Of a stretch of 58,047 nt of DNA, positions 30,243 to 49,926 are shown piece by piece; position 1 is the stretch's first letter; each line of letters begins with the position of its first letter. The DNA comes from Clostridiales bacterium (GTDB taxonomy: Bacteria > Bacillota > Clostridia > Acetivibrionales > JBDMZA01). Position numbers and translations under genes: made by a program. The notes below the pieces were generated by a model, which worked only from the letters and a program-made list of their open reading frames with translations, did no database searches and was not told the origin of the DNA. Location of the stretch: assembly GCA_039770155.1 (NCBI GenBank), contig JBDMZA010000668.1:1-58047 (forward strand). The letters run 5' to 3'.

Positions 30243-30692
30243 TTAGCTACCTGGTACTATTGCGGATAATGAGTTTATCCTAAAAGTCCCTTTAAACTTA
30301 TACGTTGACGTGGTTGATGCCGCCTCTTCATATGATGTAAAAAATCCTGTGCAAATATCCCCATATCCGTTCTTTTTTGTATGTCGAACAGTTACGATCT
30401 TCCCTGTTGTAGCCGCGTCCTTTAGTTCACTTTGGCCATCATCCAGCCCTGCGGCGGCGGTTTCAATTGATATACCTTCAACTTCAGCAGTTTCCCCGAC
30501 TGCCAGCGGTGTGAATTCCTTATGAAGAACATCAGTTCCGGCGATATAGTCCTCTGCACCTGTGATATCTTCCTCGTCAATTGATACATTTCGTTTCCAT
30601 GATGTTACTTTTGCGACAGGTTCAGAGTCAACTGTTATTATCGTTCCGGCGAATTTTACCTCACCAGCTACATTTGTTGACATATATTTCAC
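30243..30692 (-). CDS. Major tail protein
   Basis: The call rests on position, size (149 aa) and a strong RBS. Confidence 0.55.
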   Translation of the reverse strand: MKYMSTNVAGEVKFAGTIITVDSEPVAKVTSWKRNVSIDEEDITGAEDYIAGTDVLHKEFTPLAVGETAEVEGISIETAAAGLDDGQSELKDAATTGKIVTVRHTKKNGYGDICTGFFTSYEEAASTTSTYKFKGTFRINSLSAIVPGS

Positions 30693-34197: not shown

Positions 34198-35181
34198 TTA
34201 GCTCCCAGCAGGGCCTAACACAGCAAATGGGTACCTTTCTTCTTCATCTTCTTCTAAGCGGTTGATTGGGTTTGGCACCTGCCATCCAATCCTCATGGAC
34301 GCTCTTAGGGCAATCATATTTTGTTGGGCTAAATTGATCACAATTGCTCCTGTAACTGGATCTTGGATAACTGACTCAGTTAATATTTTCCATGTAACAT
34401 CTTTTCTGATCGCATAAACAAGCTGTTTCCATTCCCCAGAAATTAACAAACTTCTTGTTGGGATTATAGCCCCATTTCTAGGGAAAAACATTTGTTCTCC
34501 GTCCAATTCATACCTTGTGGCTCCTTGGACTCCTTCCTTATACAGCGCTTTGAAAATAGGATTCCCGGCACTATCCCTTAAACTTCTTAATCTAGCTTTC
34601 ATTGAAGTTGCAGCAACATGGCCGTCTACCATAAACCCATCTTCTTCAACCTTAGAAATTACCCCACCTTCTGCCATTATGTCATTGTAAATATCTCCCA
34701 ATGAGCCAAGTGTAACAAAGTTACCTGCTCCAGTTGCCGCCGCAACTATGTTTGTAGGCCAAACCGCTGGCGCATTGATACCATAAAAAACAGCTTGGTC
34801 AAATGCAAGTCCAAAAGCCTCAAGTAATTTTGGTTTAGCTTCATCCCAAATGTTATAATCAGCGTCATCAAAGACCGCTTCTGGGATTGCGACGATTACA
34901 TTTAATTCTTCTGCATCAATATATTTATTTTCCCATTGAATTTGTGTTATTCTCTTATATCCGGCATCTCCTGTATCTCCAGGGCCTGGGTTTGTAAAAT
35001 ATGCGGTTGGGAGTATACTAAGTACTGGGATACGCTTTTGTGCGCGGGACATATTTGGACCCCTATATGCATATCGCATTACAGCGGACATTTCAGGGAC
35101 GTTTTCAACGATTTCACGCTGGAACTCTTCTGGCATCAACGCTTCTACGTTTGAGCGTGGAATATAACTCATATCATTCAC
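34198..35181 (-). CDS. Major capsid protein (HK97 fold, no delta domain)
   Basis: The N-terminal region ...PEEFQREIVENV...IPVLS...AYF... and the segment ELNVIVAIPEAVFDDADYNIWDEAKPKLLEAFGLAFDQAVFYG match the remembered HK97-family pattern. Confidence 0.8.
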   Translation of the reverse strand: MNDMSYIPRSNVEALMPEEFQREIVENVPEMSAVMRYAYRGPNMSRAQKRIPVLSILPTAYFTNPGPGDTGDAGYKRITQIQWENKYIDAEELNVIVAIPEAVFDDADYNIWDEAKPKLLEAFGLAFDQAVFYGINAPAVWPTNIVAAATGAGNFVTLGSLGDIYNDIMAEGGVISKVEEDGFMVDGHVAATSMKARLRSLRDSAGNPIFKALYKEGVQGATRYELDGEQMFFPRNGAIIPTRSLLISGEWKQLVYAIRKDVTWKILTESVIQDPVTGAIVINLAQQNMIALRASMRIGWQVPNPINRLEEDEEERYPFAVLGPAGS

Positions 35182-35258: not shown

Positions 35259-35933
35259 CTATCTTCCTGCTGCTCGTCTTATTAAACTATTCATGTCAAA
35301 TCCACCAGTTTTTTTCCCTTTACCCTGCTGATCGTCACCAACAGTTTGAGTTTGAGAAGTTCCAGGTGTAGATTTAACTAAATATGTTTTATTTTTTATA
35401 AGTTCTTCGAGTGCTTCTTTTACTCCAGTAATATTTCCATTTTCATCAACTTCTATATTTTCTTTATTCATCAATTGATAAGCTCCATCACCATCAACTA
35501 TATTGAGTTCTACAGCAATTGTTTTTACTTCTGCTTTTATAAGTCTTTTATTTGCAGCTTCAATTTTCGAATTAGCATTTTTTTCTGTTTCTTCTTTTTC
35601 TGCTTTAAGCCTTTCATTCTCTGTCATTTCTTCTTTTTTCTTGTTGTTCTCGAATTCTTCACGAACTTTTTTCTCTATTTTTTTCCGTTCCCTTGCATAC
35701 CTTTTTTCAATTTGTTCTGTGAACTCTTTTTTAGTGTATATTTTGTCCTCTTCTTCAGTTGAGCCGGATTCTCCATCCGTGTTTGAATTATTTTTATCTT
35801 GCTTATCATCATCATTCTTTCCATCATCATTTCCTTGATGATCACCAGCTCCGTCACCATCACCATCTGGGATTCCTATTATAGGGAATATAGGCAGCAA
35901 TAAAAATATACTCAATAATTTTCTTAATTTCAT
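35259..35933 (-). CDS. Scaffolding protein (start moved to ATG 35933 after AAGGAGAG)
   Basis: It is rich in coiled coil and E/K residues and lies immediately upstream of the capsid gene. The N-terminus is hydrophobic and is followed by a D/G/N-rich tract. Confidence 0.6.
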   Translation of the reverse strand: MKLRKLLSIFLLLPIFPIIGIPDGDGDGAGDHQGNDDGKNDDDKQDKNNSNTDGESGSTEEEDKIYTKKEFTEQIEKRYARERKKIEKKVREEFENNKKKEEMTENERLKAEKEETEKNANSKIEAANKRLIKAEVKTIAVELNIVDGDGAYQLMNKENIEVDENGNITGVKEALEELIKNKTYLVKSTPGTSQTQTVGDDQQGKGKKTGGFDMNSLIRRAAGR

Positions 35934-36081
35934 AAGACTCTCCTTTTTTATTGTCTTTGTTGACATATCCGTTTCACAACGTAATTTTATTATATAGTGA
36001 CATGACAAAAAACGCAATCTTTCGCCATTTTATGCTACTTAGTAAAATAAAAGCAACATTTTGTTGACTATAAAAGAATAC

Positions 36082-36106
36082 AAAAAAAAATAAGCCTTAA
36101 GGCTTA
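36082..36106 (-). terminator. Rho-independent terminator
   Basis: On the minus strand, a taagcc-ttaa-ggctta hairpin (which includes the stop codon) is followed by a T9 run. Confidence 0.7.
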
Positions 36107-36379
36107 AATATCAGATTCTATCGCATATTTTATATAGAGGATTTTAATGTATTTAAATTTTTCTTCACATATAGATTTTTTATTTTTTTCTCTTTTATTT
36201 TTTAATTCATTGTATTTTTCACTAATCAAAATCTTAAATAATTCAAATTCTTCATCATCTATTATATGAAGTTCAATATTTTTAGCTAAAACCGAACAAT
36301 CTATTTCGGTCCCATTGTCATATACTATCTTTTTAATATTTTTTTCGCTTCCATTGAATTTAATCATTTTTCTCTCCAA
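36104..36379 (-). CDS. Hypothetical protein
   Basis: The last ORF of the primase cassette. Confidence 0.45.
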   Translation of the reverse strand: MERKMIKFNGSEKNIKKIVYDNGTEIDCSVLAKNIELHIIDDEEFELFKILISEKYNELKNKREKNKKSICEEKFKYIKILYIKYAIESDI

Positions 36380-36398
36380 TCTAACACAATATATTGCT

Positions 36399-36740
36399 TT
36401 ACACTACCTTAAAAAAAATTATAATATGTTTTAACACATCTATAAATTGTGTATTACAAAATTCACAAAACTCATAATTTTCTATTTCTTTAATTGATTC
36501 ATAACAGTCATCTCCAAAGCTATTACAATCAGTGCAATAAATTTTGTATGTTTTCTTTAATATGTGTTGCTTTTCTAATAAAAACATTATCTTAAGTACA
36601 GTTGATTTACTTAAACAAAACTTCTCTTCCAAGAGATCAGTATATAAATATTGCCCAACCTTCATAGTTTTTATGTATGATTTAATTTTAACCAATATAT
36701 TTTGATCTATTTTTTTGTTATTATTATTTGTATCGTCCAT
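36399..36740 (-). CDS. Winged-helix plus Zn-ribbon small protein
   Basis: It has an HTH-like segment FCLSKSTVLKIMFLLEKQHILKK and the Cys pairs CTDC...CEFC. Confidence 0.45.
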   Translation of the reverse strand: MDDTNNNNKKIDQNILVKIKSYIKTMKVGQYLYTDLLEEKFCLSKSTVLKIMFLLEKQHILKKTYKIYCTDCNSFGDDCYESIKEIENYEFCEFCNTQFIDVLKHIIIFFKVV

Positions 36741-37752
36741 TTATAATATTCCTTTCTATCCAATTTAAACTAACCTTAAAGGCTTTTTTATTCTTTACAT
36801 AATACTCATTTATATCTTTATACCCATTTTTGATAGATAGGTTGAAGGCTTTTAATCCCAGCCCTTTCAACTCATCAATAATTTTCTTTGCTGCTGCTTT
36901 CCCATATTTATCTGCATCTAAGGATACAAAAAATATAGTATTTTCAAGATTTGTTATGTTTTCTTTAACTGAATCTATAAAACGATTCTTCATTGAAATA
37001 CTATTCAAGGCAATTGCTTTATATCCTTCATTTTCAAACGATAAAGCATCGAAAACACCCTCAGTTAGAAATAAACATTCATGTGGTTCTTTTAGATAAT
37101 CAATATTAAATATAGTTAGTTTTAAATTTTTTAGATTTAATATTTTTTTGTTTTTAATTGATTTTTTATCATTTCTTCTGAGAATCAAATTTACAACTTC
37201 ACCAGATTCCCAAACTGGAATAATATACTCATAAGCATATATATTATAAAGGTTTGGTAACAGCTCTTTAGGCAATATTTTTTCAGGATTTCTTACTAAG
37301 AATTTATACTTTCTAAAAAGCCCTATATTAGTTATCCCTCTACTATAAAAATATAAATATTCTCTCTTCTTTGCTTTTTTAAATTCTTGTGATATAATTT
37401 TAGTTAAGTTTATAATTGTGCTTGGATTTTTTTTGTTATTTAAATCAATCCTTTTCTTCTTCAAACCTCTGTAATTGCGTACAGAGGTTTGATTATTTAA
37501 TATTTCCATTCCTTTTCTAATGATTTCAGGGAAATCTTTTTTTGTATCTAAATTTTCTAAAAATCCAATTACACTTATAGAATCGCCCTCAATACCACAG
37601 TGACAGCAACATAAGCCATTTTTTACACTCAAATCAAAGTTTGGTGTTTTGTGCCTGCCTGGTATACATTGCCAATTGTGGACCCCTGGTTTAGCTCCAT
37701 AATATACAAGGATCCTTGATAAATTGTTTTTTATTATTTCTTTATTATCCAA
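36724..37752 (-). CDS. DnaG-type DNA primase (CHC2 zinc finger plus Toprim)
   Basis: The zinc finger reads CIPGRHKTPNFDLS...CCCHCGIEGDSISV. The Toprim residues are LTEGVFDALS and VSLDADKYG. Confidence 0.75.
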   Translation of the reverse strand: MDNKEIIKNNLSRILVYYGAKPGVHNWQCIPGRHKTPNFDLSVKNGLCCCHCGIEGDSISVIGFLENLDTKKDFPEIIRKGMEILNNQTSVRNYRGLKKKRIDLNNKKNPSTIINLTKIISQEFKKAKKREYLYFYSRGITNIGLFRKYKFLVRNPEKILPKELLPNLYNIYAYEYIIPVWESGEVVNLILRRNDKKSIKNKKILNLKNLKLTIFNIDYLKEPHECLFLTEGVFDALSFENEGYKAIALNSISMKNRFIDSVKENITNLENTIFFVSLDADKYGKAAAKKIIDELKGLGLKAFNLSIKNGYKDINEYYVKNKKAFKVSLNWIERNIINGRYK

Positions 37753-38026
37753 TAGTTTCCCCTTCTTCCAATAATTTTTTCAAATTTTTAGTTTTCAAAT
37801 ATACAGTTTTTTCTGTGTTCCTTAATAAAAAAATGATAACAATCGCTTGATTATCATTTAATTTTACAACTTCTTTTGGCCTTCCTCCGTGTCCCTGACT
37901 TGATGGAACTTGCTTTAACTCAAAATCACCAAATTCCTTCAATACATATTTATATTTACATGCTAGCTTAACTATAGAAGCATGGTTGATATTAGTTTCT
38001 TTTGCAATATCTACAGAAGATATCAT
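37745..38026 (-). CDS. Rha-family phage regulatory protein (N-terminal domain only)
   Basis: The sequence ISSVDIAKETNINHASIVKLACKY...GRPKEVVKLNDNQAIVIIFLL resembles the Rha pattern. Confidence 0.45.
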   Translation of the reverse strand: MISSVDIAKETNINHASIVKLACKYKYVLKEFGDFELKQVPSSQGHGGRPKEVVKLNDNQAIVIIFLLRNTEKTVYLKTKNLKKLLEEGETIG

Positions 38027-38063
38027 ATTGTCACCTCTTTTTTTTAGTTTTCACACATAAGTT

Positions 38064-38092
38064 ATTTTACTATGTTTTCGAACTTATGTCAA
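38064..38092 (-). promoter_or_regulatory. Sigma-70-type promoter (TTGACA-17 nt-TAAAAT) bracketed by a 9-bp inverted repeat (ACATAAGTT / AACTTATGT)
   Basis: The minus strand reads TTGACAtaagttcgaaaacatagTAAAAT. The inverted-repeat arms are at 38055-38063 and 38081-38089. Confidence 0.65.
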
Positions 38093-38104
38093 CAAACGAT
38101 AATA

Positions 38105-39247
38105 TCATAAACTTTTTTTAATTTCCATCAAGGCTTTTGCTGCTGTTTCTCCAGCTTTACCCCTCAAATGGCTTGGGAAAATATCTTCCATAAACGCTTT
38201 TTCTTCATCCTTCATTCCATCAACTAAGGCCTTCTCTATCAATTGATTTAAATGTGGCATATCCTTCGCATGATAGCCTATTTTTTTTTGATATATCATA
38301 TATTCAAGATTTTCTGTATCTTTCCTGAAATGGCTGATAACATCCTTTGCACATAACCAGTCAGGGAAAATTACAGGTTTGCCTAACGCCCACGCCTCGT
38401 ATAGCGTACTTCCAGCGTCGGCAATAACTACATCAGCGTCGACAAGCTCCTTTAGTGTAGGCACTTGCTTTACATTATTATTCATCTTCGAAGTCGGGTG
38501 TAAACATAGCTTTACATCATAAATAGATGAATCGATTTGGTTTATTAGCTCCAAACACTGCGGATAACTAGACCTTCCACGATTTTTATTGTTATAGCCA
38601 TGAGTCGGACACCATACAATGTATTTTTTATTCCTCTCAGTTCTTTTGTATAGACCATCAAAAAGTGGATCTAATTTTGTGTATCCAACTTGAAATATTT
38701 CTCCTTTGTAACCGGTCTTTCTCATTCTTTTTTCCCATGTCGGCCCTGGACAAAAAGCATATTTGAAATCTTTTATCTTGTCCCCTGTCCAATAGTTTTT
38801 ATCAGCAATCCCGTGCGAAATAAAAACGTCATACGGGCCAACAGGGCATTTTGCCTGTTGATTAATCCTCAAGCTCGAAAAAAAGCGACAATTTACTCCT
38901 TTCCCGTCCGGTCCTGGTACCGGACGGTTAATAAAACCAGATTTTTTTTGTGATAAATGTTTTAAGATAGGTTTTCCTAAAGCTTCAATTGCGTATAAAT
39001 ACGCAGCTCCCGCGTGCTGAGAAACAATATCATAGCATAGATTAAAATCTCTACCTTTTTTCAATTTATGTTTTTCTATGTAATATTGATTATTTAATTT
39101 TCCAACTCTCAGGCTACTGCAACTCCTAATTAATTTATGGGTATAATCGCAAGCCCCTACATTTACACGTACCTCTTCATAGGGTATAAATGTATGTTCG
39201 CCTATTTCTATGATAAAGTGGTCCTTATTCATTACTGTAACAAGCAT
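38105..39247 (-). CDS. Putative TagF/TarL-like CDP-alditol phosphotransferase
   Basis: The sequences YIVWCPTHGY and VVIADAGSTLYEAWALGKPVIF resemble the TagF-family WAPTxR and ITDYSS...P.I motifs. CDP-ribitol genes are adjacent. The call is tentative. Confidence 0.4.
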   Translation of the reverse strand: MLVTVMNKDHFIIEIGEHTFIPYEEVRVNVGACDYTHKLIRSCSSLRVGKLNNQYYIEKHKLKKGRDFNLCYDIVSQHAGAAYLYAIEALGKPILKHLSQKKSGFINRPVPGPDGKGVNCRFFSSLRINQQAKCPVGPYDVFISHGIADKNYWTGDKIKDFKYAFCPGPTWEKRMRKTGYKGEIFQVGYTKLDPLFDGLYKRTERNKKYIVWCPTHGYNNKNRGRSSYPQCLELINQIDSSIYDVKLCLHPTSKMNNNVKQVPTLKELVDADVVIADAGSTLYEAWALGKPVIFPDWLCAKDVISHFRKDTENLEYMIYQKKIGYHAKDMPHLNQLIEKALVDGMKDEEKAFMEDIFPSHLRGKAGETAAKALMEIKKSL

Positions 39248-39707
39248 TATTCTGTTCCTTTCTGTATTTTCCTAAATTTGTTTTTGCTTCCCAAGGATTA
39301 AATGAATACCATTTATCCCTATTGTTCACGCTAGAAATAAACTCAGTTAAAGAAAACATAATAAATTCTGTCAGGATAAAATCTGGAGTATTGCAAGAAT
39401 TTTCAATCGAATAGCTGTTAATAAGTTGTTCTAGCTCTTTTTTAAATCCGTCAAAATCAACCTTATCAAAAGTAAACTTATCATTTTCATCTTTATGTAT
39501 TTCTTTTTCTTGATCTTGAGTTTCAGTTTCTTCTTTTTCTAAAGCCAAATAATCAATAATAAAGCAGATTGCTTCTAATAAAGTTATTGTTTCCTTTAGC
39601 AGTTGATCTTCTGTTTTTTCTAGTTTTCCACTAAATTTTAGGGTACCTATTCTTTTATATATGCTACCTCTATACAACTTAAATGTTTCTCTTGTAGATA
39701 TATCCAT
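39225..39707 (-). CDS. Hypothetical acidic protein within the glycan operon
   Basis: An ORF overlapping its neighbour with no motif. Confidence 0.45.
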   Translation of the reverse strand: MDISTRETFKLYRGSIYKRIGTLKFSGKLEKTEDQLLKETITLLEAICFIIDYLALEKEETETQDQEKEIHKDENDKFTFDKVDFDGFKKELEQLINSYSIENSCNTPDFILTEFIMFSLTEFISSVNNRDKWYSFNPWEAKTNLGKYRKEQNNACYSNE

Positions 39708-39740
39708 AATTACCTCCTAATATAATTTTTTTTAACCTCA

Positions 39741-40169
39741 TTATAAATCTTTTTCAACCATTTCAATTAAGCTAATACAAACATTATTTATAAAAGCATC
39801 TAAATCAATAAAATCATCTTTCCAACTGTCAGAATTAGCAATATCAAATCTACTAACAAAACTAAATTTACTTCTTTTTGAATCATTAACTGATATATTA
39901 TTTTCAAATTCAGTTTGTGATAAATTCAAATTTTTAAAATCTTCAATTTGCATTAATAAGCTATATATATATTTATTTATAATTTTTGGTTCTAGTTCAA
40001 TAGAAATAGAATAAAATTCATTAAAATTTTCAGCATTTCCCCTAAATAATTCAACAACTTTTGAAATTATTTTTTCTGCATTTCGTGGGTGTCTGTTTGG
40101 TGCTTGGCTGTACAACTGCCCAGCAATACAGTATATTAAGTTACATTCTGAAATTATTGCAGTTTTCAT
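39741..40169 (-). CDS. Hypothetical protein within the glycan operon
   Basis: An ORF with no motif. Confidence 0.45.
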   Translation of the reverse strand: MKTAIISECNLIYCIAGQLYSQAPNRHPRNAEKIISKVVELFRGNAENFNEFYSISIELEPKIINKYIYSLLMQIEDFKNLNLSQTEFENNISVNDSKRSKFSFVSRFDIANSDSWKDDFIDLDAFINNVCISLIEMVEKDL

Positions 40170-40175
40170 ATTTTT

Positions 40176-40847
40176 TTACCTCCTAATATAAATTATCTGA
40201 TTATCCAAAAAACTACCCTCATCTTTTATTATTTTATCCATAATAAATTTTGCTATTTCTGAAGGTTTTAACATCTTTTCAAAATTATCATCTGGAGCTA
40301 TTGCCCTTCTTAAATCACTGTCAAAGGCCCCAGGACATAAGCAATATACTTTTATCCCATACTCTTTTAATTCCTGTGCCATGCTAAGACTTAAGTTTAT
40401 TACAGCTGCTTTTGTAGCTGCATAAATAGACCTCCCAGGCCTAGCAGACATACCTGCTGTACTTGCAATATTTATTATTTTCCCAGGTATTTTATTTTTT
40501 ATGCACAACTGTGTATAAAGTTGTGAGCAATTTAAAACACCTAAAACATTTGTTTCAAATTGTGAGCTGAAATGATCTTGCTTAAATTCTAATATATTTC
40601 CAGGGATACAAACACCAGCATTATTGATTATTGCAGATGGAAATAATACATGTTCAGTTTCATTCAAATTTGAAAAGAACTCAGTTAAAGAAAAACAATC
40701 TGAAACATCAAGATCGTTCCATTTCGAAATTCCATAGTAAAAATAATTTTCTTTACATGCCGCTCTTGCTATTTCTAGCCCTAACCCTCGGTTAGAACCT
40801 GTGATAATCACTGACTTTCTAGCAGCTAATTCATCATTATTATTCAT
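40176..40847 (-). CDS. Short-chain dehydrogenase/reductase (candidate ribulose-5-phosphate reductase, Bcs1 C-domain-like)
   Basis: It has TGSNRGLG (TGxxxGxG), NNAG and YAATKAA (YxxxK). It is adjacent to an IspD/TarI-like gene. Confidence 0.75.
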   Translation of the reverse strand: MNNNDELAARKSVIITGSNRGLGLEIARAACKENYFYYGISKWNDLDVSDCFSLTEFFSNLNETEHVLFPSAIINNAGVCIPGNILEFKQDHFSSQFETNVLGVLNCSQLYTQLCIKNKIPGKIINIASTAGMSARPGRSIYAATKAAVINLSLSMAQELKEYGIKVYCLCPGAFDSDLRRAIAPDDNFEKMLKPSEIAKFIMDKIIKDEGSFLDNQIIYIRR

Positions 40848-41547
40848 TCTTCCCTCCATACTTATAACCATAAATAGCTTCAGCGATTTTTATATCTAGA
40901 GGAGTAGTTATTTTTATATTTTCTTCTATTCCTTCAATAGACTTAATTCCATTCCCTAAAACACGATTTACTAAATCACAATCATCAGTGCAGTCTTCTA
41001 GCTTTAAACTAGTAGCAGTTTCAATTTTTGTATAAGCTTCTTTCAATAACTTAGTTTTAAATTTTTGTGGCATCTGAACTTCCCCAATATCTTTTCTGCT
41101 ATATGTCATCCCATATTTTTTGTTTATCAATGTTGCCTTCATTTTTGAAACTGGGGTAATAATATCATTATCATTTTCTAAGACCTGGTACACTAATTCT
41201 TTAGTAACAAAAGGTCTTACAGCTTCAGAAATTAAAACATAATCTGTTTCAACTTCTTTAAGTGCATTTTTAACCGATTCTTGCCTTGATGCTCCATTTT
41301 CAACAAAAATAATTAGATGTGGATCATATTTTTTTGTTAAATATCCATATGATTCAAGATAACCAGTTATTTTTTCTCTATCTGCTGTTGGAATTATTAT
41401 ATTGCGAATTTCTTTTATTTCAAACAAAACATCTAGACCATAGAGAAATAAAGGCTTTCCCCCTAAATATACGAATTGTTTAGGATAACCTAATTTCGCT
41501 CTTTTTCCTATACCTCCCATTAAGTAAATACAATCAATCATTTTCAT
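40840..41547 (-). CDS. IspD/TarI-family cytidylyltransferase (candidate ribitol-5-phosphate cytidylyltransferase)
   Basis: The sequence is LMGGIGKRAKLGYPKQFVYLGGKPLFLY (the A-G-G-G-x-R ... PKQ motif). Confidence 0.7.
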   Translation of the reverse strand: MKMIDCIYLMGGIGKRAKLGYPKQFVYLGGKPLFLYGLDVLFEIKEIRNIIIPTADREKITGYLESYGYLTKKYDPHLIIFVENGASRQESVKNALKEVETDYVLISEAVRPFVTKELVYQVLENDNDIITPVSKMKATLINKKYGMTYSRKDIGEVQMPQKFKTKLLKEAYTKIETATSLKLEDCTDDCDLVNRVLGNGIKSIEGIEENIKITTPLDIKIAEAIYGYKYGGKNE

Positions 41548-42982
41548 TTTCTTCCACCTCATCTATTTTTTCTAAATTTTCATCTGTAAAAATACCTGTT
41601 GACTCATCATAACTTGACTTCATTGGACTATAAATATTTTTTTCAAATTCTTCATTTTCAATTATTTTTGCATTCTTCTCAAGTTCACTTTTAAAAGCTG
41701 CTGTAATATCTCTTATGTTATGCATAAATAAATATTCTTGTAGATTAAAAAGAAATACTTCAAGTAATCTTTTTTCAGGTTTAAATATTTTTATTTTTTC
41801 TATTGCTTCTTTAATTTCAATAAGATCTTTTACTTGATAACAGCTAGGAGCATATTGATGGAATATATTTCCAAATAATAAAGTTTGTTTGCCTCTCAAT
41901 ATTGCTTCCCATCCGGCAGAGCCAGTGACGTTAGCGACACATAAGCAGTTATCAATCATTTTATAATTATCTGTTTTTTGAGAAATTAAATTAACGTATT
42001 TTAAGTTATATATTCTTTTGTAGAAAGCTAAGCTCCTATTTTTGCTCATTCGAGGGTGTTCTTTTACATATATAGTAATTCCTATACGAGCTAATAACTC
42101 TATCATTAGAAGTTGATCGTTGAAAACCCCACCTAAAGGGCATGTTGTGGCTTCAAACTGGAAATGTAAAGGGACATAGATGTATTCTTTTTCTAACTGA
42201 GGTTTTACACAATGATTCTTATACCACAACAATATCCCTTTATGCCTAGCCAGCAATGTTTTTTGTGTTCTTCTTTTCTTTGCCGGAACAACAACAGGTA
42301 TTTTTGCAGGTCTTTTTTTATTCCAATGATTGTCAATTAGTTCCTTTAATTGTGGAATCAATTTTGGACCTTGTTGTAACTCTCCATTTAAATAATCGAT
42401 AAATTTTACATTATTGGCTATTACCTTTTTATTGAAATCTGGGAAAGGATTTTCAATTGTCCGAGACAAATATGCCATTCCTGGATGGAAAGGGCCAAAC
42501 AACCATATAGGTATATTTAAAACTCTACATAAGCCATATATAACCATGTCGTAACCTTCATGAGGAGGCGCACACCTGTAAAATACGTTAATATTGTGGG
42601 CTTTAATTACGTGCATCCAGTATCTTAGGTTATTCATGTAGTAGTTTTTTCGAGTATCATAATTTACCTTAACCGGAGGTATTCTTTCAACCATTTTTAG
42701 TGTTGTGGATTCATATGGTAACATTTTTTCTACTATAGACCCATCTAATGGCTGAACCTTTTGCCAGTCCATTTTAGGGAAATACCTCCCTCTTTTTAAG
42801 CTTCTATGGGAATAACAAAATACATTTTTCCCTATTGTATAACCTTTTGGGCATTGTGAAGGAGAAACTTTTTTTGTTGTAATAAAAATATATTTATCCG
42901 CTTTGATTGTCTTCATCATTTGAACTGCTGTCCCAACATTAACCAAGGCCAAAATGTTTAGTTCTTTTTTAGCTTTATCCAT
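41534..42982 (-). CDS. Putative capsule-polysaccharide-type transferase (Capsule_synth/KpsS-like, tentative)
   Basis: This 482-aa ORF carries PLHFQFEATT... and VANVTGSAGWEAILRGKQTLLFG, which resemble capsule biosynthesis transferases. The comparison is from memory only. Confidence 0.35.
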   Translation of the reverse strand: MDKAKKELNILALVNVGTAVQMMKTIKADKYIFITTKKVSPSQCPKGYTIGKNVFCYSHRSLKRGRYFPKMDWQKVQPLDGSIVEKMLPYESTTLKMVERIPPVKVNYDTRKNYYMNNLRYWMHVIKAHNINVFYRCAPPHEGYDMVIYGLCRVLNIPIWLFGPFHPGMAYLSRTIENPFPDFNKKVIANNVKFIDYLNGELQQGPKLIPQLKELIDNHWNKKRPAKIPVVVPAKKRRTQKTLLARHKGILLWYKNHCVKPQLEKEYIYVPLHFQFEATTCPLGGVFNDQLLMIELLARIGITIYVKEHPRMSKNRSLAFYKRIYNLKYVNLISQKTDNYKMIDNCLCVANVTGSAGWEAILRGKQTLLFGNIFHQYAPSCYQVKDLIEIKEAIEKIKIFKPEKRLLEVFLFNLQEYLFMHNIRDITAAFKSELEKNAKIIENEEFEKNIYSPMKSSYDESTGIFTDENLEKIDEVEENEND

Positions 42983-43535
42983 GTGTTATATCTCCTTTTT
43001 CCCCATTACTAGATTTATCCCACTTTTGATCACATTCATATTTATTAATATTGAAATATAATGAATTATAATAGTTTCCATCCCAGTATTTACGACCAGG
43101 AAGAGTCACTTTAGTTGCATTATACATCCCACAAATTCTATCCCAAAATTTTATATAATTTTCGTTTAAGGTATAACATTCTCCGTAAATATTTGTTAAA
43201 TTTAATTGGTTGAATCCAGCATCTAAAAGTAACTCAATTGAATTCGTCCCTTTTCCTTTTCCTCTTTGATTAGGTGCGATAATTATAGATATTTCGCCTA
43301 ATCTATTTTCCCATTCAATATTTACAAGCCCCACCATTCCAAAAAAGTCTATTCCAGAAGGCCCTCTAACTGCCCAAAATCTACAATTAGAATTTCTATT
43401 ACAAATTTTGTTCTCATAAAATTCTTTTTGCATTTCTTCAGTTAAAAAAAATGGAGTTCTGAGTGATTCAATATTGTTATTTCTCCATATCCTCACTTTT
43501 TCTACATCTCTTAAAGTTAAGCAGTCTAATTTCAT
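42975..43535 (-). CDS. GNAT-family N-acetyltransferase (PseH-like by context)
   Basis: It has a PseH-like N-terminus LRDVEKVRIWRNN... and an acetyl-CoA motif QRGKGKG. Confidence 0.6.
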   Translation of the reverse strand: MKLDCLTLRDVEKVRIWRNNNIESLRTPFFLTEEMQKEFYENKICNRNSNCRFWAVRGPSGIDFFGMVGLVNIEWENRLGEISIIIAPNQRGKGKGTNSIELLLDAGFNQLNLTNIYGECYTLNENYIKFWDRICGMYNATKVTLPGRKYWDGNYYNSLYFNINKYECDQKWDKSSNGEKGDITHG

Positions 43536-43543
43536 ATCACTCT

Positions 43544-44272
43544 TTATCCTTTCATTTTCATTAGATTTATGATGTCACTAATCTTTTCAAAGTCTTCTTT
43601 TGTATCAATACTAAGTTTTGTTTTTATATCAGACCAAAATAAATTGGTGTCATTACAACTTTGGTTTAGTATATTATATTTATCCTTATTATTTCTGATG
43701 TACAAAGTCACATGTTCCTTTTCTGCCCCAGTTAAACTATCTATATTAAGATACATTTCCTCTAATATTTTTGTCTTAAAGACTTCAACATCAAGCCCAG
43801 AAGGCATAAAATTATTGTGTCTATTCCACGAATAATCATATTCATTGACGCAATGATCGTAAATAATAGAATCGATTATATGAGGGAAAAACGCTAATAA
43901 CGGGCAATCAGATGTGATACGAACAATATTATCTATCCTGTTGTTTTTTGATATTTCCTTGTAACATTTGTAATACCTCGATAGAACATCGTTTTCTGGC
44001 ACATCATAAACAAGAATATCATCTTTTGCAAAATATTCAGATTCTTTGTGAATGTCGATTAAGGGTTTATCCTGCTCAGTTAAAGGAACAATTATTTTTG
44101 TCAGCGGGATGTAATGGCTGTTTTTTGCCGCTTCTAAAACGTAAGCCAATACAGGCATTCCAGCTATTTTTTTCAAAACTTTACCTGGTAACCGAGTACT
44201 CCCCATCCTAGCCTGGACTATGCATAAAACATTAATAAATCCATCTGTTTTTTTATGTTTTCTCATTTTCAT
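43544..44272 (-). CDS. CTP_transf_3 / SpsF-type cytidylyltransferase (candidate CMP-nonulosonate synthetase, PseF-like)
   Basis: The sequence is CIVQARMGSTRLPGKVLKKIAGMPVL. Confidence 0.65.
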   Translation of the reverse strand: MKMRKHKKTDGFINVLCIVQARMGSTRLPGKVLKKIAGMPVLAYVLEAAKNSHYIPLTKIIVPLTEQDKPLIDIHKESEYFAKDDILVYDVPENDVLSRYYKCYKEISKNNRIDNIVRITSDCPLLAFFPHIIDSIIYDHCVNEYDYSWNRHNNFMPSGLDVEVFKTKILEEMYLNIDSLTGAEKEHVTLYIRNNKDKYNILNQSCNDTNLFWSDIKTKLSIDTKEDFEKISDIINLMKMKG

Positions 44273-44553
44273 TCACTTCTTTCATAAATATTTTTATAAA
44301 ATCTTTTTCCTAATACATCAAATCCTTTTGAATATGCATATAATTCATATTCAGAGTATTCAAATCTTAACCCTTTACAATACAACATAAATCTTTTAGT
44401 ATAATATTTTTTATCAGTATTAAAAACATAATAAGGCTTTAGTAGTTTCCCATTACTGTTTTTTATCATCAAATATTTCCCATATATTTTAATTTGATAT
44501 ATTCTTTCTCTTTTGATTACTACATCTAAAAAATCTAATTTATTTTGATTCAT
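44269..44553 (-). CDS. Hypothetical basic Tyr-rich protein within the glycan operon
   Basis: An ORF with overlapping stop/start on both sides. Confidence 0.45.
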   Translation of the reverse strand: MNQNKLDFLDVVIKRERIYQIKIYGKYLMIKNSNGKLLKPYYVFNTDKKYYTKRFMLYCKGLRFEYSEYELYAYSKGFDVLGKRFYKNIYERSE

Positions 44554-44562
44554 GATATCCCT

Positions 44563-45189
44563 TTACAGTATTTCTTTTAACTGAGCTGGTGTTCTTGCAA
44601 AATTACCAGAATCCAGACCAGTTGAATTCTCTAACTTATAATGCCATTCAATTTTTTCAGGTTTATATTTACGATATAAATCAAAGTTTGATGTATGGTC
44701 AGAGATATAACGTAATTGATTTTTATTAAAGTTTTTTTCATAATCACCTAATTTTGCTGGATATTTTGATATGCAACAAAACAGCTTTGTATCATAGTAA
44801 TAATGTAATCCTGTCGTATAACTAGCATATACAGTTATTCCACGAGGGATAAGGTCTATTAATGGGTAATATTTCTTATTATTCGCAATTTTAACAAAAG
44901 GAAGATCCGCTTTAAACCCTAATAAAAAATTTAGTGAATCCTCATCAAAAACACTAGCTGTTGTTTTATATCCTTTTGTTTCTGCATATCTCATTGCAAA
45001 TACAAAAACATTTTGGTTGAGCGGAATATTTTCCCCAGCCTTTTCAAATAGTTGCCATTTTATTATTATTTTATATTTTCCGGAATCAATCGCTTTTAAC
45101 TGGGCAATCATTTCTCTAACAATGTCTTTATCGTTCTTGCAAGTATTTCCACTCCCAAAATCTAAAATAATTTCATTTTCTATTTGCAT
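44563..45189 (-). CDS. NeuB/PseI-family nonulosonate synthase TIM-barrel domain, lacking the C-terminal SAF domain
   Basis: It aligns by eye along the barrel of remembered C. jejuni PseI (MQI..., KWQLF vs KIQT, FVKIAN vs YKIAS, ISDHTS vs LSDHS, IEWHY vs IEKHF). It ends at 208 aa. Confidence 0.5.
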   Translation of the reverse strand: MQIENEIILDFGSGNTCKNDKDIVREMIAQLKAIDSGKYKIIIKWQLFEKAGENIPLNQNVFVFAMRYAETKGYKTTASVFDEDSLNFLLGFKADLPFVKIANNKKYYPLIDLIPRGITVYASYTTGLHYYYDTKLFCCISKYPAKLGDYEKNFNKNQLRYISDHTSNFDLYRKYKPEKIEWHYKLENSTGLDSGNFARTPAQLKEIL

Positions 45190-46283
45190 TTATCAATTAC
45201 CTCCAGTATTTTATTAGATATATAATTAACATCTTTTTCAGTTAAGGCACAATAAATTGGGATACTCAATATGTTATTCTTTATTTTTTCAGTGTTTAAG
45301 CATTTTACATTCTTATCAATGCTTTCTCCCAGGTTGCTTGAATGCTTAAGATAATAATAAGGGTGGTCGTAAACAGGGACATAGTGTATCTGTGTTTGTA
45401 TCCCATGATTGAGTAATTCTTGTCTAACTTTATCCCTATTGTTTACTTTTATAATATATAGATGGCAGGCGTTCGAAACTGGGAATTTTAATTGGTTTAA
45501 CGAATATTTTTTTAGTTTATAATAATATTCGCTAAAAATAAAATTTCGTCTAGATATAAAGTGGTCCATTTTGTAGTATTGGCTAATACCTAACGCTGCA
45601 TTGATATCAGACATTTTGTAATTATACCCAAGATAAACCATTTTGTTCTGGACCATCCCATGGATTCTTAAACATTTCATTAATTCATATGAAAAACTGT
45701 CATCCGTCAATATCATGCCACCTTCACCAGTTGTTATATTTTTGACTGGGTGAAAACTGAAACATACAAAATCCGGCTTTTCATTTTCATTAAAATAGTT
45801 GATTCCAAACGAATGACAAGCATCTGAAATTAGAATTAAATTTCTAGTTGTACAAATTTTCTTTAATTCTTTATAATTGCACAATTGCCCAGCCATATCA
45901 ACAGCTATAACAGCTTTTGTGTGCTTTGTTATTTTTCTTACTACATCTTTTGTATTAATCAGAAGCGTGTCTTCTTCAACATCAGCAAAAACAACTTTTG
46001 CACCACACATTTCCACAACATTTGCAGTTGCAACGAATGTTATGGCTGGTACAATAACTTCATCATCTTTTTTAAGGTCCAGAGCTTTTAAAACTAAATG
46101 TAATGAAGCAGTCCCAGAATTAACAGCTATAGCATAACTAAAAGAAAAATTATCCTTGATTAAGTTTTCAAACTTTTCTACGATAGGACCTTGGGTTAGA
46201 CACTTACTTTCAAGTGTCTTTATAACCGCGCTTATATCGCTTTCGTCTATGTAATGTTCTCCATATCGATATTTTTTATCCAT
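45180..46283 (-). CDS. pseC: DegT/DnrJ/EryC1-family PLP aminotransferase (PseC-like)
   Basis: The fold pattern is typical (LTQGP..., AVNSGTASLHL, PAITFVAT, FSFHPVKNITTGEGG with the catalytic Lys). The gene is adjacent to pseB. Confidence 0.8.
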   Translation of the reverse strand: MDKKYRYGEHYIDESDISAVIKTLESKCLTQGPIVEKFENLIKDNFSFSYAIAVNSGTASLHLVLKALDLKKDDEVIVPAITFVATANVVEMCGAKVVFADVEEDTLLINTKDVVRKITKHTKAVIAVDMAGQLCNYKELKKICTTRNLILISDACHSFGINYFNENEKPDFVCFSFHPVKNITTGEGGMILTDDSFSYELMKCLRIHGMVQNKMVYLGYNYKMSDINAALGISQYYKMDHFISRRNFIFSEYYYKLKKYSLNQLKFPVSNACHLYIIKVNNRDKVRQELLNHGIQTQIHYVPVYDHPYYYLKHSSNLGESIDKNVKCLNTEKIKNNILSIPIYCALTEKDVNYISNKILEVIDKCK

Positions 46284-47247
46284 TTAGAATATTCTCCATT
46301 TCTGAAACTGATAGCCGCTCAGTATTATTATCTGAACTATATGAAAAATCACCATCAACCTCTGAAAAATCAGCAAATGGCACTTCATAATTAAGCCAGT
46401 CAAAAACAGGTTTAATTATGAAAAATTCTCCACAATTTAATACATTTCTACTTTCTTCATTTGATATCAATGTTTCATGAAGCTTTTCCCCTTGCCTAAT
46501 TCCAATCATATCAATCTTACACTCAGGTGCAATTGCTTCAGCTAGTTCAACAACTCGCATTGATGGAATCTTAGGGATGAAAATTTCTCCACCTTTCATG
46601 TATTTTAGTGCAGTCAGAACAAATTCAACACCCTGATCAACTGTTAGCCAAAATCTAGTCATTCTATTATCTGTAATCGGAATCTTTCCTGTTTTCTTAG
46701 CTTCCTTAAATACATTGATAACAGATCCCCTTGAACCAATAACATTCCCATACCTAACAACAGATATACGAACATCTTTAGAGCCAACATAACTTGCCCC
46801 TGAGATTGCAAGCTTTTCCATGCATAATTTTGTAGCACCATACAAATTTACAGGATTTACCGCTTTATCTGTAGAAATAAAAATAACTCTTTTTACTTTA
46901 GTATCAATTGCAGCTTCAATTATGTTTTGCGCTCCAATTATGTTAGTTCTTATAGCTTCATACGGGTTATACTCACAGGATGGGACTTGTTTCTGAGCTG
47001 CAGCATGTACAACTATATTGATATCAGTGAAAGCCCTTTTAAGTCTGTTATAGTCTCGAATATCACCAATTAGAAAAGAAATCCTATCTTCATCTTTATA
47101 AAATTTTTGCATTTCAGATTGTTTTAGTTCATCTCTTGAAAATACATATATTTTTTTAACCTCATGTGCTAGTGCCTGTTTTACAAATTCTTTTCCAAAT
47201 GTGCCAGTACCCCCTGTAATTAATACTTTTTTATTTTTTAAGTACAT
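46276..47247 (-). CDS. pseB: UDP-N-acetylglucosamine 4,6-dehydratase (inverting), PseB/FlaA1 type
   Basis: It carries LITGGTGTFGKEF, FSRDELKQSEM, HAAAQKQVPSCEYNPYEAIRTNIIGAQN, STDKAVNPVNLYGATK, VRYGNVIGSRGSV, MTRFW and GIRQGEKLHE. The start is placed at the ATG after GGAGG. Confidence 0.9.
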   Translation of the reverse strand: MYLKNKKVLITGGTGTFGKEFVKQALAHEVKKIYVFSRDELKQSEMQKFYKDEDRISFLIGDIRDYNRLKRAFTDINIVVHAAAQKQVPSCEYNPYEAIRTNIIGAQNIIEAAIDTKVKRVIFISTDKAVNPVNLYGATKLCMEKLAISGASYVGSKDVRISVVRYGNVIGSRGSVINVFKEAKKTGKIPITDNRMTRFWLTVDQGVEFVLTALKYMKGGEIFIPKIPSMRVVELAEAIAPECKIDMIGIRQGEKLHETLISNEESRNVLNCGEFFIIKPVFDWLNYEVPFADFSEVDGDFSYSSDNNTERLSVSEMENILNG

Positions 47248-47401
47248 CTTAACCTCCAACCGTTTTTATACATATATTATAATACTAAAAAAAACAAAAA
47301 AAAAGATAACTTTGGAAACTATCATCTTTTTTTCTTTTTTCTTTCTAGAATATTTAGAAAGAAGGCAAAACCACCATGACAATAATATTATAACATACAA
47401 C

Positions 47402-48055: not shown

Positions 48056-48274
48056 TTAAAATCTGTCTATATCTTTTGGATTATTTAAGATTCCAAAACT
48101 ACCCAATGACACAATTATAAATGTCAGTGTAGCAGCTACAACCTTTTGATCGACACCAATTTTTTCATATACACCCCATAACCCAAGTATTACAACCAAT
48201 TCTGTTACAAAACTCAGCCAAACCACAGGACTTTTGACCCTATTATTCCTTTCCATTAACCTCATTCCTTTCAA
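48056..48274 (-). CDS. Small two-TM membrane protein (holin-like topology)
   Basis: The two hydrophobic segments are VVWLSFVTELVVILGLWGV and VVAATLTFIIVSLGSFGIL. Confidence 0.45.
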   Translation of the reverse strand: MKGMRLMERNNRVKSPVVWLSFVTELVVILGLWGVYEKIGVDQKVVAATLTFIIVSLGSFGILNNPKDIDRF

Positions 48275-48509: not shown

Positions 48510-49700
48510 CTACCTAGCTTTTTTAATCTGTTCTCTTTCATATTTTCGCCTTAAAAATTTGTTTTCCTTTAAATGATCTCTTTGCTTAGCTTGCCATTCT
48601 CTAGTTTTTTTATTATTATATTCTTCAGTTTTTTTGTCAAGTGAAGTATTTGACCTTCTTTTGTATGCCCTAATATTCCTCTCTATTGCTCTTTGTCTTA
48701 ACTGAGCCTGATATGCAAGCCTTTGAGCTTCTTCATACCCGTACTCATCAATTAATTTTTGCTCACGAGGATGAGTTCTAGTTTCAAGAGGCTTCGACAC
48801 ACCTTCAATGTATACAGATATGTCATGTAAACAGTTCGGATGAAATAACCCTTGTGTTTCAGCGTCGGCAACACTTTCATAATCTGGATGCCTTCCATCA
48901 ACTGATAAAATCTTACCTTCGTAAGGAGTGCAAAGCGGACATGCCCTAAAATGAGCCGATACGACGCATAAGGGATAACCAGTTTCAACAAAACGATTTA
49001 AGGAAGCTTGAACCGCTGCGCGGCCTGTTATTGTCCGGCCTAGCATTTCAGAATATGTATCAATTGACACATTTCTGCCATCTTTATATCTTATAGCCTG
49101 TAATCCTTTTTTGGAATATTCATTCAATAGAGCCTGGCTCATCCTTCTTCTTGTGAATATATCAGATTCTTTATAGCTTTGCTCTCCAACCATTATCGAA
49201 ACATCCCGATATAAGTCGTTTCCAGCTCTCAATATCTGTAAAGGCTGTTTATCTATCGAGTAATAAGCTGCATTCCTAAAAACTCCAAAAAATTGTGTAT
49301 GGTTTTGCCATCCTTCAAAAAATGCCAATTGCTGGCCTGTAATTGGCGGTATTGGTGGAATTGGAGGCGGTGATTTAATTAAAAAACTTCCAGTTAAGAC
49401 AGAATTAATATTGCTAGTCTTTAGGTTATTAGCGCGTAGTATGCTATTTGAATGTGTTAAACCTGCTATATAAGCTTTTGCCACGTCTTCATTAATCCAT
49501 TTTATTGCAGATTTTTTATATTTTTTTATTGCCTTAGTTAACCCAGTCTCATACTTTTCCCTAGCGGCAACAACTGCACCAGGATTATTTATACCTAGTT
49601 TATTTAATTTTAATAACAATCCGCCTACTTCCCAGACTAGTAATTCAGCAGCAAAAACTAATTCACTTGATAAATTTTCATACGTTGATTGGTTTATCAT
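48510..49700 (-). CDS. Head morphogenesis protein (SPP1 gp7 / Mu F family)
   Basis: The sequence CPLCTPYEGKI ... HPNCLHDIS is typical of Phage_Mu_F. The start is placed at ATG 49700, just after the upstream stop. Confidence 0.7.
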   Translation of the reverse strand: MINQSTYENLSSELVFAAELLVWEVGGLLLKLNKLGINNPGAVVAAREKYETGLTKAIKKYKKSAIKWINEDVAKAYIAGLTHSNSILRANNLKTSNINSVLTGSFLIKSPPPIPPIPPITGQQLAFFEGWQNHTQFFGVFRNAAYYSIDKQPLQILRAGNDLYRDVSIMVGEQSYKESDIFTRRRMSQALLNEYSKKGLQAIRYKDGRNVSIDTYSEMLGRTITGRAAVQASLNRFVETGYPLCVVSAHFRACPLCTPYEGKILSVDGRHPDYESVADAETQGLFHPNCLHDISVYIEGVSKPLETRTHPREQKLIDEYGYEEAQRLAYQAQLRQRAIERNIRAYKRRSNTSLDKKTEEYNNKKTREWQAKQRDHLKENKFLRRKYEREQIKKAR

Positions 49701-49701
49701 G

Positions 49702-49926
49702 TCAATCAGTACCTTTCTGTATAAAATGTCTAATTTCATCAATAACATTTTTCTTAATAGTTGATTGACTACAAATACTAAATTTTTCTAATTCTGGGTG
49801 GCTGTCCCCATGTAACAATATTTTATTAAATAAAGTACACCTATGGTTTAGCCCAAGAGCCTTAAAGCAATTCTGTTGTTTTTCGGTTAAAGATAAAAAC
49901 TGACAATTTCCACAAGTATCTTTCAT
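49702..49926 (-). CDS. Small Cys-rich protein
   Basis: It carries CGNC...C...C...H. Confidence 0.4.
   Translation of the reverse strand: MKDTCGNCQFLSLTEKQQNCFKALGLNHRCTLFNKILLHGDSHPELEKFSICSQSTIKKNVIDEIRHFIQKGTD

Follow-up and report, generated by a model that had tools for sequence, protein, structure and literature searches.

Why would a tailed phage keep genes for sugar-nucleotide synthesis and glycan transfer in the middle of its head-morphogenesis operon? The question is raised by contig JBDMZA010000668.1, a 58-kb stretch of about 30% G+C (58,047 nucleotides, analysed as a whole and called the window below) that holds a siphophage-like genome with a long minus-strand late operon. Positions 38105–47259 form a block of co-directional minus-strand open reading frames (ORFs) between the MuF-like gene and the genes for the scaffold and the major capsid protein (MCP), with stop and start codons that overlap by 4–32 nt or else lie 6–33 nt apart. 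A sequence-only reading had described tightly packed, overlapping genes at this place, which ORF and profile analysis bears out, although it counted 14 ORFs and we count 12. Judging from sequence patterns, we hold with moderate confidence that the block is a late-expressed module for the cytoplasmic glycosylation of the phage’s own virion proteins with a glycan of ribitol phosphate and a pseudaminic-acid (Pse)-type sugar, for which C-terminal serines of the MCP and the tail-tube protein would be the acceptors.

Linkage to head genes and the C-terminal serines

The gene order, which the sequence-only reading had proposed to search for, recurs at 40–75% protein identity in about 60 viral or metagenome-assembled genome (MAG) loci found by scans of IMG/VR and GTDB genomes, and in none of the cultured phage records. 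The block is a clade-wide feature, not an insertion peculiar to the window phage. Among loci with at least 60% MCP identity and enough upstream DNA, the full trio of IspD-like, short-chain dehydrogenase/reductase (SDR) and TagF-like genes lay upstream of the scaffold and MCP genes in 17 of 18; the 18th is cut at its edge and has the TagF-like gene. Below 60% MCP identity the trio occurred in none of 25 loci. Some 45 further loci share the synteny. Locus L059 has the complete window order, from MuF and PseB to the TagF-like gene and MCP, at 42–57% protein identity, and L108 (MCP 57%, TagF-like 40% identity) has a different one, in which the MCP gene is followed by GT2, IspD and TagF-like genes. 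This long-term linkage of the module to head genes supports a role in the virion.

The invariant core of the clade is the ribitol-phosphate part of the module, not the Pse part. IspD, SDR and TagF-like genes are conserved about as well as the portal protein, the IspD-like enzyme in all clade members. In minimal relatives (L026, L021, L023) the order is MuF, a single glycosyltransferase, the core, then scaffold and MCP, and nonulosonic-acid genes are lacking; many relatives have the nonulosonic-acid arm, though not all, and the glycosyltransferases vary. The slot between the GNAT and IspD genes can be filled by a KpsS-like, GT29 sialyltransferase-like, formyltransferase-like or PIG-L deacetylase gene, or by methyltransferases, pyruvyl transferases, or GT2 or DXD transferases. 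The variation of this slot between close relatives looks like the diversification of an exposed glycan.

The pyruvyl transferases of the slot are of the polysaccharide type (L009 290–1303, L006 12592–13344, L061 5362–6366). Pyruvylated glycans are ligands of SLH domains, and it is tempting to speculate that a pyruvylated virion glycan engages S-layer or wall proteins of the host.

The candidate acceptors emerged from the ends of two structural proteins. In loci bearing a TagF-like gene, all 40 distinct MCP sequences end in serine, with 24 different last-four-residue tails, as against 2 of 26 distinct sequences in loci without one. In an MCP alignment the module-bearing clade is set apart from module-free relatives by an inserted NPGP loop, an insertion of 4 residues and a short C-terminal tail with Ser at its end; the terminal Ser and the NPGP loop are candidate acceptor features. 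The L108 protein ends in ...PEGS. A module-free group (MCP 48% identity) carries a protein extension of about 75 aa at this C-terminus, with a weak CarboxypepD_reg match, suggesting that the C-terminus is surface-exposed. The candidate second acceptor is an unrelated 146-aa protein in the tail-tube slot, between the tail terminator gene (PF12691) and the overlapping chaperone pair and tape measure. It had no Pfam match, and its family profile found no match in PDB; in related loci 44 homologous ORFs were found, and every one of them ends in ...[G/A/N]S. Self-glycosylation of virion proteins had been the first of three roles put forward in the sequence-only reading, with small head-proximal ORFs or the fibre as possible targets. 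The C-terminal serines favour that role and shift the likely acceptors to the MCP and the tail-tube slot.

We compared the window with 50,697 phage records. Megablast with the block and the capsid–tail region gave no match in this collection, nor did tblastn with the terminase and the tail-tube-slot protein. PseB found matches of at most 41% identity, none in this context, and several of them sit in records resembling host contamination. The TagF-like protein had one distant match, at 33% identity in Thermobifida phage P1312, where the gene follows the tail genes, away from the head module. The module occurs in no cultured phage of the collection, and literature searches on phage-encoded Pse, nonulosonic-acid or CDP-ribitol modules found no relevant description, in keeping with the earlier statement that no such arrangement had been described in a tailed phage.

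Enzymes of the module

The sequence-only reading had proposed that the phage makes two activated precursors and transfers them. The profile and structure searches support a route to a cytidine diphosphate (CDP)-alditol by Bcs1 logic, most of a route to a cytidine monophosphate (CMP)-activated Pse-type sugar, and KpsS-like and TagF-like transferases matched to these donors; PseG was not found. Profile searches agreed with its DegT/PseC-like, CTP_transf_3, GNAT, IspD-like and SDR assignments. Two of its three large candidate transferases or unknowns stood as such, becoming the KpsS/KpsC-like and TagF/TarL-like proteins, and the third (39225–40169) resolved into a Tad5 homologue and a 160-aa ORF.

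In the alditol core, the IspD-like protein matched IspD and the ribitol-5-phosphate cytidylyltransferase TarI (6xhp, 4jis) about equally strongly in PDB. The SDR, for which no equivalog model exists, always adjoins the IspD and TagF-like genes in relatives, as in the Bcs1 fusion. The 380-aa TagF-like protein was assigned from its fold, a broadened profile and motifs. Its AlphaFold2 (AF2) model (predicted local distance difference test, pLDDT, 90.5) gave 14 top Foldseek matches in PDB that were all TagF (3l7m, E 4e-10), the TagF-like domain of Cps3D or TarL with CDP-ribitol (8va1), at a template-modelling (TM) score of about 0.5; against a viral library the model had generic GT-B matches only. 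A profile of close homologues (A1) matched nothing in PDB, and one broadened with cellular homologues (A3) matched TarL only (E 1.3e-4), with the APT and DxSSxxYE motifs aligned. The window protein had no PF04464 match, only weak TarB (E 0.0066) and Epimerase_2 matches; its cellular homologues, at 35–41% identity, reach PF04464. Members of the TagF-like family share a catalytic His in an xHG motif, (Y/F)APT and D-x-x-S-x-x-(Y/F)(E/D). SHGxxDK is invariant among the homologues of the window protein, and its H145 probably corresponds to the catalytic His of TagF, an assignment made by motif and not by residue-level superposition. All 427 homologues are unannotated. The protein is 48–67% identical across the clade and begins with a beta domain of about 85 aa that is missing from the cellular homologues. 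We infer that it transfers alditol-phosphate from CDP-alditol.

The same combination of IspD-family cytidylyltransferase, reductase and TagF-fold phosphotransferase occurs in TarI/TarJ/TarL of Staphylococcus aureus wall teichoic acid and in Bcs1/Bcs3 of the Haemophilus influenzae type b capsule (PMC10901376, PMC10299916), and the SDR-type reductase of the block matches the Bcs1 logic. By comparison, the phage enzyme has 380 aa, no detectable membrane-association segment and the additional N-terminal beta domain. Unlike the teichoic-acid systems, the block is without genes for TagO/TagA/TagB priming, TarGH export or LCP ligation.

Distant TagF-like homologues without the N-terminal domain (L111–L141, 31–43% identity) lie on other viral contigs, including very large ones (L112, 224 kb; L136, 104 kb; L135, 90 kb), some with IspD and SDR genes adjacent in other orders. 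Clostridial cells have cassettes of a short TagF-like gene and a cytidylyl- or nucleotidyltransferase, with or without an SDR or GT4 gene (L066 9953–12103, L067 9950–11481, L065 9782–12580, L064 1267–2160). Their hosts are Anaerovorax odorimutans DSM 5092 and Syntrophomonadaceae MAGs, no obvious teichoic-acid machinery lies near them, and the L065 cassette adjoins a DUF2680 repeat protein. These cassettes may be small-scale systems of glycan or protein modification and the source of the phage core.

Our searches support the view that the phage encodes most of a CMP-pseudaminic-acid-type pathway. PseB, the inverting uridine diphosphate (UDP)-N-acetylglucosamine 4,6-dehydratase, had been called unambiguous, and it scored 447.8 bits against the TIGR03589 cutoff of 407.75 over its full length (323 aa according to the gene caller; ATG at 47247, with GGAGG upstream). 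The best NCBIfam match of the PseC-like aminotransferase was TIGR03588 PseC (329.9 bits, cutoff 423.5), the GNAT reached 25.4 bits with TIGR03585 PseH (cutoff 93.1), and the CTP_transf_3 enzyme 32 bits with the PseF equivalog (cutoff 205.7), its best PDB match being the cytidylyltransferase 6oew (E 1e-22). The NeuB/PseI-like barrel proposed earlier held up only after family-profile and structure work, as the 208-aa ORF alone gave a sub-threshold NeuB match. Its 448 homologues, of about 200–228 aa, mostly have PF03102; their family profile found Campylobacter jejuni PseI (8h2c) as best PDB match (E 5.5e-9), and the AF2 model (pLDDT 95) matched NeuB/PseI barrels in Foldseek (TMq 0.73–0.75). K44-x-Q46, S163-D164-H165 and E181-x-H183 are invariant. 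The ORF is predicted to be a compact NeuB/PseI-family synthase that condenses phosphoenolpyruvate and is without a SAF domain.

The 482-aa KpsS-like protein, a candidate Pse transferase, is a borderline member of PF05159 (19.7 bits, cutoff 20); most of its 222 homologues have this domain, and its PDB matches to KpsC were weak (E 0.014–0.06). Single-sequence scans of viral contigs with this protein and with the short NeuB were empty, and alignment-based ones had to be used. CMP-activated ulosonic acids are used by the Capsule_synth (PF05159) superfamily, which includes the Pse5Ac7Ac transferase KpsS1/GT118 (PMC12887879) as well as the Kdo transferases KpsC/KpsS. The KpsS-like gene is present in a subset of relatives only, and its donor and acceptor are putative. 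L011 has a GT29 sialyltransferase-like gene (37.5 bits) in the same slot, and the occurrence of one or the other there supports a CMP-nonulosonate donor. The only GT-B protein of the block is the TagF-like enzyme. We considered it as a PseG or hydrolysing epimerase and rejected this, as it is conserved in relatives without any nonulosonic-acid genes and TagF and TarL match better.

Against the PseB-C-H-G-I-F pathway of Campylobacter and Helicobacter and of Clostridium flagellin loci (PMC13317340), the block shares a true-equivalog PseB and, in a pathway-like order, a PseC-like enzyme, a GNAT, a NeuB-family synthase and a CTP_transf_3 enzyme. It differs in having no PseG, in the short SAF-less synthase, and in a transferase that is KpsS-like here and GT29-like in relatives, not of the Maf or FlmG type.

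Put together, the proposed mechanism would run as follows. IspD and SDR would make a CDP-alditol, most plausibly CDP-ribitol, and the TagF-like enzyme would add the alditol-phosphate. PseB, the PseC-like enzyme, GNAT, short NeuB and CTP_transf_3 would make the CMP-activated Pse-type sugar, with the PseG step supplied by the host or by an unrecognised ORF, and the KpsS-like enzyme would transfer it. The conserved C-terminal serines of the MCP and tail-tube protein would be the acceptors, perhaps recognised by the phage-specific N-terminal domain of the TagF-like enzyme, and variable transferases and tailoring enzymes (methyl-, pyruvyl- and formyltransferases, deacetylase) would make the glycan differ from one relative to the next. 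Head and tail would thereby bear an anionic, teichoic-acid-like coat capped with nonulosonic acid.

Freeman et al. 2023 reportedly located mycobacteriophage glycans at the C-termini of capsid and tail-tube subunits, the same two protein slots that have the conserved C-terminal Ser here. In mycobacteriophages Che8, Corndog and Myrna, the capsid is glycosylated by transferases that the phage itself encodes (PMC12363180, PMC11256854, PMC13445384). The likeness lies in phage-encoded transferases acting in the cytoplasm on the phage’s own major structural proteins, as proposed for the window phage. These mycobacteriophages have glycosyltransferases only and draw on nucleotide sugars of the host, whereas the window phage also encodes the CDP-alditol route and most of the CMP-nonulosonate route. 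In Maravista (cluster F1, related to Che8) the transferase genes are located close to the genome’s 3′ end (PMC11256854), and those of the window lie between MuF and scaffold. The conserved transferase also differs, being a TagF-like phosphotransferase that implies a phosphodiester-linked alditol.

The enzyme families and virion glycosylation as such are known. New are their combination and position, the SAF-less synthase, the N-extended TagF-like enzyme and the predicted acceptor motif. Glycosylation of tailed-phage virions has so far been documented for a few mycobacteriophages only, with simple transferases and host sugars; here a whole uncultured clade, with genomes of about 55–61 kb in many metagenomes, has complete or near-complete precursor pathways for two unusual building blocks. 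If the reading is right, it would add a new virion-decoration chemistry of alditol-phosphate and nonulosonic acid, a small nonulosonic-acid synthase that has no SAF domain, a TagF-family enzyme whose acceptor may be a protein, and a simple acceptor motif, namely serine at the C-terminus of two structural proteins. The reading would then matter for phage stability, adsorption, immune and lectin recognition, and the engineering of glyco-decorated particles.

Weighing the explanations

Several points weigh against glycosylation of the virion. The PseC, PseH and PseF candidates each fall short of the respective equivalog cutoff, so sequence does not fix which nonulosonic acid is made, and profile searches found no PseG or hydrolysing epimerase in the block or in relatives L058, L059 and L061. 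The substrate specificity of IspD cannot be read from sequence. No protein-priming glycosyltransferase is obvious in the window phage. The tail-tube protein is identified by gene position only, and its Ser ending has no module-free control set; the correlation of C-terminal Ser with the module comes essentially from one clade plus the outlier L108 and is phylogenetically non-independent. To our knowledge, TagF-family enzymes act on glycolipid or glycan acceptors and not on proteins, and we know of no ribitol-phosphate-modified bacterial or phage protein.

The alternative destinations are the host envelope and another intracellular target. Functions reported as missing here were sought in all 12 ORFs of the block and in those of about 90 aa or more elsewhere in the window. 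The main rival reading, which we think unlikely, is that late in infection the enzymes supply or change a glycopolymer of the host, be it wall teichoic acid, capsule, or an S-layer or flagellin glycan. Receptors could thereby be masked, sparing progeny from loss on cell debris, or competing phages could be shut out. This would fit the fact that TagF/TarL-like and KpsS-like enzymes work on wall or capsule polymers in all characterised cases, and the cellular TagF-like plus nucleotidyltransferase cassettes of Clostridia (Anaerovorax, Syntrophomonadaceae); the Pse glycosylation of flagellin, widespread in Clostridium (PMC13317340), would also explain a dependence on host PseG. It would leave unexplained, however, the invariant C-terminal Ser on the MCP and tail-tube-slot protein and the strict MCP linkage in two gene orders, and it has to contend with the absence of a lipid-carrier priming enzyme, flippase, ABC exporter and LCP ligase among the ORFs tested and of a membrane segment in any block protein. 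The position of the genes, in the late head operon of a phage with no detected integrase, also speaks against it. TarP in S. aureus prophages and the genes of O-antigen-modifying temperate phages are lysogenic-conversion genes expressed from a prophage. They resemble the block in being phage genes that act on teichoic-acid or surface glycans, and differ in that the block runs in the same direction as the late structural operon and lies within it. The ORFs tested included no member of an integrase or recombinase family, which makes a role in lysogenic conversion unlikely. A target other than envelope or virion surface is quite improbable, be it the DNA of the phage (by hypermodification), MuF or some other ejected or internal protein, or the acidic N-terminal region of the scaffold, and so is a metabolic or decoy role in anti-defence. 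The MuF–scaffold interval does take anti-defence and DNA genes (Tad5 here; Dam methylases and TnpB in L003 and L006), and in the scaffold a D/N/S/G-rich stretch comes after a conserved hydrophobic N-terminus. The DNA of Bacillus phage SP-15 is hypermodified, and its annotated CDP-glycerol glycerophosphotransferase was a weak match (E 3.1e-4) in the structure search. The module shows no tie to DNA, though, and the ORFs tested included neither a hydroxymethylase or thymidylate-synthase-like enzyme nor a DNA glycosyltransferase or base-activating enzyme; we rejected DNA hypermodification as the leading explanation for want of base-activating enzymes. Tad5, a recent insertion absent from the closest relative, is uninformative on the function of the block.

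That the block came from the host and was mis-joined into a phage contig, or that the contig is a prophage flanked by host genes, has next to no chance of being true. The contig was deposited within a ‘Clostridiales bacterium’ MAG, and the sequence-only reading had raised the possibility of a chimera. Over window positions 31534–52982 (21.4 kb), across both block junctions, an assembly of run SRR25010665 is 100% identical; L069, a relative from a second run (SRR14699983), has the same block at 84–93% nucleotide identity and reproduces the junctions; and the synteny is shared by the roughly 60 loci, which come from many samples. G+C content and strand skew are continuous across the junctions. 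Many of the related loci lie on contigs of 55–61 kb that were binned to unrelated phyla, a pattern typical of free phage genomes. A chimeric assembly is excluded by these observations.

Glycosylation of the virion can be taken one step further. The N-terminal domain of the TagF-like enzyme might recognise the C-terminal ...[G/A]S of capsid and tail-tube proteins, so that ribitol-phosphate would be phosphodiester-linked directly to Ser and extended by KpsS-like, GT29-like, DXD and GT2 transferases into a teichoic-acid-like polyanionic coat that mimics or engages the Gram-positive wall. We offer this tentatively and think it rather doubtful. If true, it would be the first protein-linked ribitol-phosphate outside animal alpha-dystroglycan and the first protein acceptor for a TagF-family enzyme.

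Neighbouring genes, non-coding sites and minor observations

Table 1. Features of the window, in order of descending position (coordinates of the whole stretch)
Feature	Position	Strand	Evidence or remark
Small terminase	53311-53880	minus	late operon
Large terminase	51943-53307	minus	late operon
Portal	50400-51899	minus	late operon
MuF/minor-capsid-2	48510-49748	minus	PF06152; 412 aa
Non-coding gap	47260-47401	minus	142 bp; 5′ of PseB; read directly
PseB, inverting UDP-GlcNAc 4,6-dehydratase	46276-47247	minus	TIGR03589; PF02719 E 2.6e-99
PseC-like DegT aminotransferase	45180-46283	minus	PF01041 E 1.6e-96
Short NeuB/PseI-family synthase barrel (predicted)	44563-45189	minus	208 aa; SAF-less
94-aa ORF	44269-44553	minus	in close relative L069
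CTP_transf_3 cytidylyltransferase, putative CMP-nonulosonate synthetase (PseF role)	43544-44272	minus	PF02348 E 1.3e-21
GNAT N-acyltransferase, putative PseH role	42975-43535	minus	PF13302, PF00583
KpsS/KpsC-like (Capsule_synth) candidate Pse transferase	41534-42982	minus	482 aa
IspD/TarI-family cytidylyltransferase (putative CDP-alditol synthesis role)	40840-41547	minus	PF01128 E 8e-32, 111 bits
SDR, putative Bcs1-type ribulose-5-phosphate reductase role	40176-40871	minus	PF00106 E 6.5e-34
Tad5 homologue (type I Thoeris inhibitor)	39741-40169	minus	PF25190 E 5e-32
160-aa ORF	39225-39707	minus	PHROG 31227 (function unknown), E 2.7e-9, via C-terminal part
TagF/TarL-like alditol-phosphate transferase (putative)	38105-39247	minus	380 aa; fold, broadened profile, motifs
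Rha-Toprim cassette	36091-38092	minus	Rha 37745-38026; Toprim/primase-like 36724-37752; two small ORFs
Scaffold	35259-36017	minus	
MCP	34198-35181	minus	PF05065; C-terminal Ser codon 34201-34203
Tail-tube-slot protein	30243-30683	minus	146 aa; ends ...IVPGS; candidate second acceptor
Tape measure	26450-29494	minus	

The MuF-to-scaffold interval spans 12.4 kb in the window (Table 1). Past the MCP gene follow connector genes, the tail terminator, the tail-tube-slot protein, the chaperone pair, the tape measure and distal tail genes, and the left part of the window holds an amidase, RecT and a RecD-like helicase. A tRNA scan of the window found none.

The non-coding gap upstream of PseB was read directly and contains the TATAAT and inverted repeat that the sequence-only reading had pointed out: TGTTATAAT and a second TATAAT, one of the two boxes having a preceding TG, and a 9-bp inverted repeat, TTCTTTCTA...TAGAAAGAA. 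The promoter scan listed no 11/12 match in this gap. At the strong promoter that had been placed after the block there is a promoter-like site, an 11/12 match (TTGACA-17-TAAAAT, 38092–38064). It is part of the separate Rha-Toprim cassette and not the end mark of the head operon, and in this AT-rich DNA promoter-like sites are only about 2 sd above shuffles. As the promoter and terminator scan was not clearly enriched over shuffles, operon boundaries are tentative. The cassette is bracketed by this site and a terminator-like hairpin (36106–36091) and is wedged between the TagF-like and scaffold genes; it occurs in many relatives, and in minimal relatives without it the TagF-like gene directly precedes the scaffold gene.

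Two block genes lie between SDR and the TagF-like gene. The Tad5 homologue scored 111 bits against the PF25190 cutoff of 27 over profile positions 2–122 of 123. Tad5 binds ThsB and blocks the Thoeris ThsB active site (PMC13402655). Its insertion (window 39728–40176), between SDR and the 160-aa ORF, is absent from L069, close as that is, and from all other relatives, and by this distribution it is a strain-specific, very recent insertion and not glycan machinery. L069 also has no counterpart of the 211-aa ORF region. The 160-aa ORF is 97% identical in L069 and has homologues between SDR and the TagF-like gene in L070 (~9604) and between NeuB and CTP_transf_3 in L082/L106 (~2969); it may be a functional accessory of the glycan module rather than a random moron. 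The 94-aa ORF had no Pfam, NCBIfam or PHROG match and was not detected in distant relatives.

The interval between MuF and PseB/PseC also holds TnpB/IS605 OrfB, a PAPS-reductase-like gene and Dam-type DNA methyltransferases in L003 (11675–16444) and L006 (6890–8242). With the Tad5 insertion here and the TnpB and Dam genes there, the MuF–scaffold interval seems to be a hotspot or swap site for accessory and anti-defence genes such as Tad5. MuF-like proteins are longer in L006 (4569–6788, 739 aa) and L021 (442–3015, 857 aa) than the 412 aa of the window, and in L006 an insert of about 1 kb interrupts the similarity to the window protein; the added length could be an intein or an effector domain. 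Downstream of MuF, with one small ORF between, a 72-aa ORF (48056–48274) has a strongly hydrophobic stretch (KD19 2.26), possibly two segments, and is conserved in L069.

The scaffold-like protein begins with a conserved hydrophobic segment (KD19 2.0, ‘LLSIFLLLPIFPIIGIP’) and has an acidic, low-complexity D/N/S/G-rich stretch between it and the scaffold domain, an arrangement unusual for a scaffold. Both features recur in L011 (9275–9976), L018 (9273–9968) and L059 (14358–15041), and this part of the protein could be an alternative acceptor or an anchoring element.

At 10755–11594 a PAPS-reductase-domain gene is apparently split into two adjacent ORFs, of 91 aa (profile positions 3–56) and 185 aa (positions 101–174); a frameshift, an intervening element or degeneration of the gene could account for this. 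Nearby, at 8493–9002, is a gene for a GIY-YIG endonuclease. The ORF at 13843–14166 strongly matches the STIV B116-like family (PF08960, E 4.6e-30), which was first described in an archaeal virus.

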